Source: Escherichia phage HP3.2
Reading direction: 5' to 3' (one strand)
Length of the DNA: 64,000 nt
Sequence record: OP978391.1
A model generated the notes under the pieces. The model searched no databases. It was not told the DNA's origin and saw only the letters and a program-made list of their open reading frames with translations. The translations under genes and the position numbers were made by a program. Positions 46,199 to 47,500 of this stretch are shown here, piece by piece (positions within the stretch are counted from its first letter, which is position 1; the number at the start of each line of letters is the position of its first letter).

Positions 46199-46672
46199 TC
46201 ATTTGATTTGTTTAGCAGACCAAATGCGGTCTTTAATAATTTTTTGGATGTCTTCAACATACTCAAGAGAGTGAACATGTGGATTATCTTTGAAACTATA
46301 AGCACGGGCTAACTTTTGGCCTTCGGTTTTGATTACTAAAAGCTCTTTAAGGATAGCTTCATATTTAGCGATAATTCCTTTAACGATATTTTTTTCTTGT
46401 GCCGCTTTAGGATCTGCTTTAGGAGCAGGTTTACCCGAAGCCTTTGCAAAAGCAGCGCCAGTAGCAACTAAACTTTTCCAGGCCATACTAACTGCATTTC
46501 CCGTAAATCCTTCCGCTTTCATGTCGCGTGCAAACTGGAATCGCGATTCATCAGAAGCATCTTTATAGGAATATTTACCCGCGGCAATGGCAGCTTTTGC
46601 AACAGCTTGAATTTCGGTGCTAGATGCTTCATTTAACACCGCTTCATTTAAAAATTGAGTATATGATTTCAT
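46199..46672 (-). CDS. Internal-protein-like capsid-targeted protein (157 aa)
   Basis: Start at ATG 46672 gives MKSYTQFLNEAVLNE (CTS-like); paralogous N-terminus to 45510-46073; listed ORF extension is read-through. Confidence 0.6.
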   Translation of the reverse strand: MKSYTQFLNEAVLNEASSTEIQAVAKAAIAAGKYSYKDASDESRFQFARDMKAEGFTGNAVSMAWKSLVATGAAFAKASGKPAPKADPKAAQEKNIVKGIIAKYEAILKELLVIKTEGQKLARAYSFKDNPHVHSLEYVEDIQKIIKDRIWSAKQIK

Positions 46673-46724
46673 CTTATTTCCTATTTTAATTTGTAGATTT
46701 AATATACTAATATTTATACCAAAA

Positions 46725-46748
46725 AGCCCCAACCTTTCGGTCGGGGCT
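46725..46748 (-). terminator. Intrinsic terminator after the stable-RNA region
   Basis: GCCCCGACC-GAAA-GGUUGGGGC + UUUUU on minus-strand RNA. Confidence 0.65.
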
Positions 46749-46749
46749 A

Positions 46750-47055
46750 AGCCTTGCGGCAACCTTGTCGGGGTTCCACCTGCTAAGGCAAGTGTTTGTA
46801 CGAAACGCCGGGATTCGAACCCGGTTATTAAGTAGTTGACGCTACTCAATATTTTTAAAAGGCCATATCTCGACCATATCCGAACGTTCCGTCAAAAACG
46901 CTACTCGGCTTACGGCAAAGATATTTCCTCGAATCGATAATTCGGTGCGCCGTTTCTGCTGTGATAGTAAAGAGCCAGAACACAGTAAAACTGTGGGAGG
47001 AAACTATACTCCAGGGAACATCAGTCCGACGACTTACCGGTAGCGACCCGGTTTC
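46750..47055 (-). ncRNA. Small stable RNA region with tRNA-like 3' domain (resembles T4 tRNA-cluster-associated species RNAs)
   Basis: No ORF over ca. 300 nt; minus strand has acceptor CGGAACG/CGUUUCG plus canonical T-arm CCGGG-UUCGAAU-CCCGG (46800-46891) and local hairpins CACAG-UUUUA-CUGUG, CGAAU-UAUCG-AUUCG. Confidence 0.45.
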
Positions 47056-47406
47056 TTAATATTCTTTTAAAGAATCAATATATTCACGGCGTTTACGCCA
47101 CAAATCAATTGCTTCATACGCGGATTCAGCATTTCGAATTAGCCGGCATTTATGTAAAGACTTATGATTTTGATATTGTGTAGATAACGGAATTGTATCT
47201 AAAAGGTCTTTACGATCAAAATATTTGTAACCATCTAAACCAAATGAACGATTTTTGAGAAATTGCCAATGACCATATTCGTTTTCGACATAAACATAAT
47301 CTGCATGCTGATAAAGCAAATTAATTACACGTTCAGAAATAACAGTATCATTATGATTAAAATAGAATGTTAAATCATGAACTACTAAATAAACATTACC
47401 TTTCAT
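47056..47406 (-). CDS. Hypothetical protein (116 aa) within the tRNA region
   Basis: ORF between tRNA-Arg and the stable-RNA region. Confidence 0.5.
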   Translation of the reverse strand: MKGNVYLVVHDLTFYFNHNDTVISERVINLLYQHADYVYVENEYGHWQFLKNRSFGLDGYKYFDRKDLLDTIPLSTQYQNHKSLHKCRLIRNAESAYEAIDLWRKRREYIDSLKEY

Positions 47407-47424
47407 ATTTTCCTCACTTATAAT

Positions 47425-47500
47425 TGGTCGAGGCAGTAGGGATCGAACCTACGACCTAGGACTTAGAAGGTCCTTGCTCTTCCTTCTGAGCTATGCCCCG
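47425..47500 (-). tRNA. tRNA-Arg (anticodon UCU)
   Basis: Hand-folded cloverleaf: acceptor CGGGGCA/UGCCUCG, anticodon loop CUUCUAA, T-loop UUCGAUC, encoded CCA. Confidence 0.8.

Follow-up and report, generated by a model that had tools for sequence, protein, structure and literature searches.

The window, i.e., the whole stretch of 64,000 nucleotides analyzed here (Escherichia phage HP3.2, OP978391.1), carries on its minus strand, at 46721-47059, a segment identified by sequence and position as the rnaD-rnaC locus of a Tequatrovirus, orthologous to that of phage T4. The locus encodes two small RNAs, both on the strand of the tRNA genes and before one shared terminator, and the coordinates of its elements, obtained from a three-way alignment of the window, T4, and RB3, from the T4 sequence, and by string matching, are the following:

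48442-47425, minus strand: cluster of 11 tRNA genes, as called by ARAGORN.
47406-47056, minus strand: 116-aa open reading frame (phrog_3355), between the tRNA cluster (tRNA-Arg) and rnaD.
47059-46944, minus strand: rnaD (species 2 RNA) orthologue, 116 nt, with boundaries by homology to the T4 annotation, aligned to T4 (NC_000866) and RB3.
46943-46938, minus strand: 6-nt spacer GAAUUA between rnaD and rnaC, from the three-way alignment and string matching.
46937-46797, minus strand: rnaC (species 1 RNA) orthologue, overall extent from homology, covariance model, and fold.
46937-46799, minus strand: rnaC following the T4 annotation convention, 139 nt.
46936-46797, minus strand: rnaC following the RB3 annotation convention, 140 nt.
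46796-46749, minus strand: trailer, with a 34-nt core at 46796-46763.
46748-46721, minus strand: intrinsic terminator of the tRNA/rnaD/rnaC transcription unit, with a 10-bp stem, a GAAA loop, and a T run.

The locus itself is already known and its identification is ordinary. By blastn, the segment 46700-47060 matches 808 phage records, nearly all Tequatrovirus-like and from Escherichia, Shigella, and Yersinia, with at least 80% of the query covered in 679 of them. The matching stretch of the RB3 record (AJ884578) is annotated as 'rnaD, species II RNA' and 'rnaC, species I RNA', and the T4 reference genome (NC_000866) places rnaD at 71053-71171 and rnaC at 70908-71046, directly after tRNA-Arg, and both align with the window elements. 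The rnaC of the window is identical to that of T4 in 138 of 139 bases over the full length, scores 162.9 bits (E = 2e-34) with the rnaC covariance model described below, and reaches 95% identity or more in 680 of the 747 phage records containing rnaC. The 3' end of rnaD adjoins rnaC via the same 6-nt spacer as in T4, homology of the ends being also the criterion of the RB3 record. The earlier note had described the region as resembling the stable species RNAs of T4; with 808 matching records and the annotations of RB3 and T4, the window carries the orthologous locus itself. The same note correctly placed the region downstream of the tRNA cluster (11 tRNAs, minus strand), recognized the strong terminator at its end (46748-46721; 10-bp stem, seven GC, then a T run), and called the interval, ca. 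310 nt between the 116-aa ORF and the terminator, non-coding, in agreement with an ORF listing that comprises only ORFs of at most 42 aa wholly inside, plus a TTG extension upstream of a gene truly starting at 46672.

Over 46797-47059, most GenBank records of T4-like phages carry no annotation or 'hypothetical protein', and among the records listed rnaC is named in only 4 of 60, several giving 'hypothetical protein' instead. Such annotations imply that the region encodes small proteins, a reading to which a 42-aa GTG ORF at 46983-46855 would also lend itself. Nevertheless, this ORF straddles the rnaD/rnaC junction, and both RNAs appear as separable modules in other genera, the substitutions are paired and compensatory rather than codon-like, and T4 rnaC was detected as an RNA on a Northern blot (PMC9697503), making small proteins an exceedingly improbable explanation.

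Several features of the neighborhood deserve description. The 116-aa ORF at 47406-47056, absent from the earlier note, lies between the tRNA cluster and the RNA region, comprises 351 nt, and belongs to phrog_3355 (E = 5e-52), with no Pfam match. Its stop codon TAA corresponds to nucleotides 2-4 of the predicted rnaD, so that a cut at the rnaD 5' end would leave the ORF mRNA stop-less. The same ORF/rnaD geometry is observed in VR20 (locus L076), with a TGA stop at 599-601, and the phrog_3355 family also occurs after the Karamvirus tRNA cluster (locus L003, 1529 onward). Within the tRNA cluster, a 114-nt spacer (47694-47581, minus strand) separates tRNA-Asn from tRNA-His and contains the 16-nt palindrome TGTGACAACTGTCACA (47690-47675); a similar break in T4, between tRNA-Ile and tRNA-Arg, accommodates the homing endonuclease gene segB. 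At 47860-47774 (minus strand), ARAGORN calls a tRNA-Tyr whose variable arm is long and which is not in the Rfam list at the gathering threshold, which comprises 10 tRNAs versus the 11 of ARAGORN. On the other side of the locus, the 28-nt terminator occurs twice in identical form on the minus strand, at 46748-46721 and 46191-46164, the twin copies flanking the first of two tandem phrog_2280 paralogues (46672-46199 and 46073-45510). The motif TATAAATA (46711-46718, minus strand), which we take to match the T4 late-promoter consensus, is located 2 nt past the T run of the terminator and precedes the gene whose start is at 46672, and similar motifs follow the terminator in JS10, VR5, and a Mosigvirus locus.

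Homologues of rnaC with 75-87% identity were found in seven genera, including Karamvirus, Kagamiyamavirus, Moonvirus, Tegunavirus, Gelderlandvirus, Marfavirus, and Tequatrovirus. A first alignment of eight sequences, made with MAFFT only and folded by RNAalifold, yielded 44 pairs, with compensatory double changes in 22 of them. When phage records and IMG/VR contigs were searched with the covariance model built from this alignment, 26 copies were retrieved, of which 23 are distinct. Across the 23 distinct sequences, standard pairs occupy 92.2% of cells, compared with 38-42% when the partners are slid by 1-3 columns, and changes on both sides occur at 30 of 50 pairs in seven or more genera, pair counts in the model-fitted alignments (A4, A8) leaning towards the covariance model. 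The observed covariation score was reached by none of 500 shuffles. The expectation that the secondary structure is kept across related phages is borne out for rnaC by the pairs changed on both sides in the 23 distinct sequences. Moreover, the minimum-free-energy fold of the window rnaC alone, at -50.2 kcal/mol (z = -4.05, with none of 200 shuffles as good), is the same four-way junction as the comparative fold.

Beyond the phage set, a scan of IMG/VR with the rnaC 5' motif returned 59 loci, about 15 of them with a real rnaC, and a metagenome scan with a loose two-part pattern gave one real rnaC, on a Tequatrovirus contig, among the 80 loci listed of at least 120 matching stretches, the others being chance matches. 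A scan of bacterial genomes with one exact rnaC 3'-motif pattern returned 16 loci, none of them rnaC; the best locus (26.8 bits, ca. 88 nt) is probably an ordinary tRNA.

The rnaC RNA comprises the following elements:

46936-46930 with 46807-46801, minus strand: acceptor-like helix, CGAUUCG with CGUUUCG, from covariation in 23 sequences.
46929-46859, minus strand: long bent hairpin, helices H2-H5, loop UGAC, 71 nt, in place of the D arm.
46851-46826, minus strand: 10-bp hairpin with the 6-nt loop CGUCAA, 8 of 10 pairs compensatory.
46824-46808, minus strand: T arm CCGGG-UUCGAAU-CCCGG, directly adjoining the acceptor 3' strand, as in tRNA.
46800-46797, minus strand: 3' tail UACA, standing in for NCCA.
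46894-46891, minus strand: UGAC in the H5 loop, first kissing-loop partner.
46840-46837, minus strand: GUCA in the loop of the 10-bp hairpin, second kissing-loop partner.

The architecture of rnaC is a four-way junction comprising (i) the acceptor-like helix, (ii) the 71-nt bent hairpin, (iii) the 10-bp hairpin, and (iv) a canonical T arm. It corresponds to an expanded cloverleaf in which the top half of tRNA is intact, i.e., an oversized, non-decoding tRNA look-alike, and in which the D/anticodon half is replaced by the bent hairpin and the 10-bp hairpin, with their loops paired to each other. In the acceptor-like helix, five of the seven pairs are formed in all 23 distinct sequences and pair 3:70 alternates between G-C (in 15 of them) and A-U (in 8), the two central U.U mismatches being present in 21 of 23 and replaced by U-A and C-G in the Tegunavirus type. 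In the bent hairpin, 17 of 24 pairs are compensatory, with 88-100% of cells paired per helix.

The tRNA-like element proposed in the earlier note is thus retained in part and redrawn in part. The T arm CCGGG-UUCGAAU-CCCGG is real, being paired in 100% of cells in the 23 distinct homologues with two of five pairs compensatory, and the 'non-canonical anticodon region' is likewise a real hairpin, with a 10-bp stem and a 6-nt loop (46851-46826) and compensatory changes at eight of its ten pairs. On the other hand, the proposed acceptor, CGGAACG (46891-46885) with CGUUUCG, shows zero compensatory changes, and three of its pairs are disrupted in 12, 7, and 4 of the 20 sequences compared. This pairing does form on paper in T4-type sequences; CGGAACG is nevertheless rejected as the acceptor 5' strand, as it constitutes the 3' strand of the internal hairpin H5, which is 96% paired with five of seven pairs compensatory. 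Since CGUUUCG pairs with the 5' terminus of the RNA itself, the tRNA-like unit is the entire rnaC of ca. 140 nt, not a separate 3' domain of ca. 93 nt.

The contact between the two distal loops adds a tertiary constraint to this fold. All four UGAC/GUCA pairs form in each of the 23 distinct rnaC sequences, and the kissing pair covaries in two lineages, to UGAU/AUCA in the Tegunavirus type (two sequences) and to UGGC/GCCA in the Marfavirus type (three, from independent contigs). This signal is not imposed by model fitting, because covariance models cannot encode pseudoknots. With the distal loops paired to each other, the rnaC loop at the anticodon position is unavailable for decoding or for recognition as an anticodon, and in the modeled structure rnaC exposes no anticodon. 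A 9-nt direct repeat, GAGUAGCGU, starts both kissing hairpins (46895-46903 and 46842-46850, minus strand) and may reflect an internal duplication.

The genomic setting of rnaC in other genera resembles that of a tRNA gene. In Karamvirus and Gelderlandvirus loci (L003, L074, and L007), rnaC is flanked at a distance of a few nucleotides by tRNA-Trp and tRNA-Gly; in the first of these, from Karamvirus, tRNA-Trp occupies 621-694, rnaC 701-841, and tRNA-Gly 847-921. In Kagamiyamavirus EcS1 (L004), rnaC is found between tRNA-Phe and tRNA-Trp, and in Tegunavirus TG1 (L006) it is preceded by a CDS and followed by tRNA-Trp. The ends of the RNA are also tRNA-like: 22 of 23 distinct homologues have a U at position -1 of the acceptor helix, the acceptor/T-arm helix stack amounts to 12 bp, and the tail after the helix reads U-[A/U/C]-C-A across homologues, UACA in the window and UCCA in the Marfavirus type. 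A U at -1, a 12-bp acceptor/T stack, and an NCCA-like tail are features used by bacterial RNase P and by 3' trimming enzymes. Judged from gene order and sequence, evolution seems to treat rnaC as one more 'tRNA gene', and from the tRNA slot, the U at -1, the 12-bp stack, and the tail we infer excision by the tRNA machinery. Through its tRNA-like top half, rnaC would be recognized by the tRNA-maturation enzymes of the host, with RNase P cutting at the 5' end and other enzymes trimming the 3' end, and this processing would excise rnaC from the polycistronic transcript and confer stability. That rnaC is processed by tRNA-maturation enzymes, and hence excised and stable, is probable on this structural model. 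Because of the two U.U mismatches (21/23) and an ACA tail rather than CCA, rnaC would be an imperfect substrate of RNase P or of the CCA enzyme.

The likeness to tRNA is confined to part of the molecule. The 7-bp terminal helix (with two U.U mismatches in 21/23), the 5-bp T stem, and the 7-nt T loop are present; the rnaC fold contains no D arm and no anticodon arm whose 7-nt loop is free. Only the genes of the tRNA cluster are called by ARAGORN and by Rfam at gathering thresholds: neither ARAGORN nor the Rfam tRNA model at its gathering threshold calls a tRNA over rnaC, nothing in the rnaD/rnaC interval reaches the gathering score of any family in Rfam 15, and a permissive Rfam scan of 46650-47450 (E up to 10) returned chance-level matches only, such as tRNA-Sec at 46800-46892 (17 bits versus a 47-bit threshold, E = 2.1). 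An intron-interrupted tRNA gene was considered and rejected, as no D and anticodon arms can be made from the parts that would remain and the stable species of T4 is the RNA in its full length.

The comparison of loci also separates the elements from one another. In JS10 and VR5 (Dhakavirus), rnaD is followed directly by trailer and terminator, without rnaC; in VR20 (Gaprivervirus), an ORF stands between rnaD and the trailer, again without rnaC; and Karamvirus and the other rnaC-bearing genera outside Tequatrovirus have rnaC without rnaD. As far as gene order tells, the trailer and the two RNAs are modules that can be separated from one another. The 34-nt trailer core AACACUUGCCUUAGCAGGUGGAACCCCGACAAGG (46796-46763, minus strand) is the same after rnaC (Tequatrovirus), after rnaD (JS10, VR5), and after the ORF (VR20), hence invariant across four genera, and occurs in a single copy in the window. 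No covariation is available for the trailer in the aligned contexts, where no structure is supported; it may represent a processing site or a third RNA element.

This arrangement bears on whether rnaC and rnaD are cis-acting elements, i.e., structured modules that guide processing of the tRNA operon or shield its 3' end, the stable RNAs being leftovers. In Tequatrovirus both RNAs follow the last tRNA and precede the terminator, the invariant trailer travels with the terminator, and the tRNAs and both RNAs of T4 derive from a single precursor of ca. 1.75 kb, as reported in the SegB paper (PMC2330249), all of which would fit such a role. It is nevertheless rather improbable, given that rnaC is cluster-internal, not 3'-terminal, in the Karamvirus, Kagamiyamavirus, and Gelderlandvirus loci read, and that a 140-nt four-way junction with a conserved kissing loop is unnecessary for a 3' protector.

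The second RNA, rnaD, is unrelated to rnaC and not tRNA-like, and consists of an invariant core and a swappable hairpin. It was found in Tequatrovirus, Mosigvirus, Dhakavirus, and Gaprivervirus, and its first 48 nt and last 22 nt, shared with T4, are near-invariant among 12 phages of these four genera. Its elements are as follows:

47052-47036, minus strand: hairpin P1, ACCGG-GUCGCUA-CCGGU, with a 5-bp stem and a 7-nt invariant loop.
47011-46966, minus strand: variable central hairpin of the window type, 46 nt, predicted fold, with no sequence kinship to the T4 type.
47033-47027 with 46952-46945, minus strand: predicted long-range helix, GUCGUCG with CGGCG-C-AC, from RNAalifold and the minimum-free-energy fold.

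The closing pair of P1 is A-U in 9 and G-C in 3 of the 12 sequences, a compensatory change, and its other four pairs are invariant; covariation is uninformative for the core and long-range helices because the positions are invariant. The stability of the window rnaD is no better than that of shuffles (z = -0.19). At least three unrelated types of the middle segment exist (window, T4/RB3, and JS10), with a long hairpin predicted at the same place in each, and the central 46 nt of the window have no homology to the T4 or JS10 types.

A variable hairpin of this kind could serve as an antisense seed against phage or host mRNAs, and rnaD in particular, together with rnaC, would then be a base-pairing regulatory sRNA. 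The wholesale replacement of the rnaD middle segment between phages points in that direction, as does a convergent SNP acquired during host adaptation: all lines of a T4-like phage adapting to a semi-permissive host acquired the same single SNP, located in rnaD (PMC12685909, 2025). The searches for targets weigh on the other side. Elsewhere in the 64-kb window, exact complementarity extends to no more than 12 nt, compared with 11-14 nt for 30 shuffled controls, and a blastn search of 5,426 complete E. coli genomes (both strands, E up to 0.1) returned no match to rnaC or rnaD; moreover, the conserved loops of rnaC are engaged with each other and the variable segment of rnaD is predicted to be mostly double-stranded. 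Regulation by base pairing is accordingly quite unlikely.

Reported together with the T4 tRNAs in the early 1970s, rnaC and rnaD belong to the oldest orphan RNAs of molecular biology. Since T4 survives deletion of its tRNA region, a function of either RNA would have to be conditional. A 2010 review gives the biological roles of both T4 RNAs as unknown (PMC3014915), and a 2022 omics study confirmed T4 RNAC by Northern blot as late-accumulating and 'of yet unknown function' (PMC9697503). In line with the earlier note, neither RNA has been assigned a function in the literature searched through 2025-26 (PMC3014915, PMC9697503, PMC12685909).

Five decades without a function found (PMC3014915, PMC9697503) would be expected if both RNAs were inert by-products, degenerate tRNA-derived spacers that accumulate only via a protective tRNA-like fold and have no function in trans. 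The occupation of tRNA slots by rnaC and its absence from the loci read in Dhakavirus (JS10, VR5) and Gaprivervirus (VR20) are compatible with this view. However, the rnaC structure is under purifying selection in at least seven genera, both sides having changed at 30 of 50 pairs, its loop-loop tertiary contact is kept by compensatory change, and rnaC is conserved at 95% identity or above in the 680 of 747 records, whereas the middle of rnaD is freely replaced. That the RNAs are inert by-products is therefore considered unlikely.

The preferred reading, in which rnaC borrows the shape of tRNA, would give the RNA a role in trans. The rigid body locked by the kissing loops, together with the tRNA elbow, would present a protein-binding surface, and the candidates to be bound or titrated would comprise a host nuclease, a defense factor, or a processing enzyme recognizing tRNA, with the variable rnaD arm tuning a host-specific interaction. 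That rnaC is in this sense a trans-acting, non-decoding tRNA mimic titrating a tRNA-recognizing protein, with the rnaD arm as host-specific tuner, is speculative and is put forward as a tentative possibility. The narrower proposal that rnaC is a purpose-built tRNA-shaped decoy neutralizing or titrating a tRNA-recognizing host factor (an anticodon nuclease or other tRNA-sensing defense) or a processing enzyme, and that rnaD is a host-range determinant in an arms race, is doubtful. As a whole, the reading of the region as the known rnaD-rnaC locus, with rnaC as an expanded cloverleaf, probably processed by tRNA enzymes and, more speculatively, decoy-like in function, is the best explanation, with a probability of roughly 0.8.

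One more T4-like phage with rnaC and rnaD adds nothing by itself. The new elements are (i) a corrected four-way-junction model of rnaC, which is backed by covariation and offers an experimental handle in its loop-loop contact, open to disruption and repair by mutation; (ii) the equivalence of rnaC to a tRNA slot and the modularity of rnaD, rnaC, and trailer; and (iii) a family absent from Rfam 15, in a region where most phage records miss rnaC and rnaD or call it protein-coding.

By sequence as well as position, the two RNAs are orthologues of those of T4, from which they differ neither in strand and order nor in the 6-nt spacer; the terminator is identical, and the trailer is near-identical, with two substitutions in T4. 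The differences comprise the central 46 nt of rnaD, which form an unrelated hairpin in the window; the 116-aa ORF, which lies between tRNA-Arg and rnaD in the window, whereas T4 rnaD starts 2 nt after tRNA-Arg; and the tRNA set, with 11 tRNAs and no segB in the window.

Compared to canonical tRNA (RF00005), rnaC preserves the 7-bp terminal helix on a 5-bp T stem, the UUCGAAU loop, the four-way junction, the gene slot within the tRNA cluster, and the U at -1, but lacks the D arm and the 7-nt anticodon loop, the equivalent loop being locked by kissing, has twice the length of tRNA, and ends in UACA, not NCCA. The tRNA-like domain of tmRNA provides a second parallel, since there too the 5' and 3' ends form an acceptor helix beside a T arm and the remainder is non-tRNA. 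Unlike tmRNA, rnaC has no G3.U70, no encoded CCA in most lineages, and neither a tag reading frame nor the tmRNA pseudoknots; likewise, ARAGORN reports no tmRNA and Rfam gives no tmRNA match.

Further analogues are YrlA (bacterial Y-RNA-like), mascRNA, and the gammaherpesvirus TMERs, non-decoding RNAs of tRNA shape matured by tRNA enzymes. The Y-RNA-like and viral tRNA-like Rfam families give no match in 46650-47450 at E up to 10. The ends of YrlA make a Ro-binding stem, whereas those of rnaC make an acceptor helix, and E. coli is not known to have Rsr; in contrast to mascRNA and the TMERs, no downstream RNA cargo is released at the rnaC locus. What rnaC has in common with all three is that it, too, is a non-decoding RNA with a borrowed tRNA shape.
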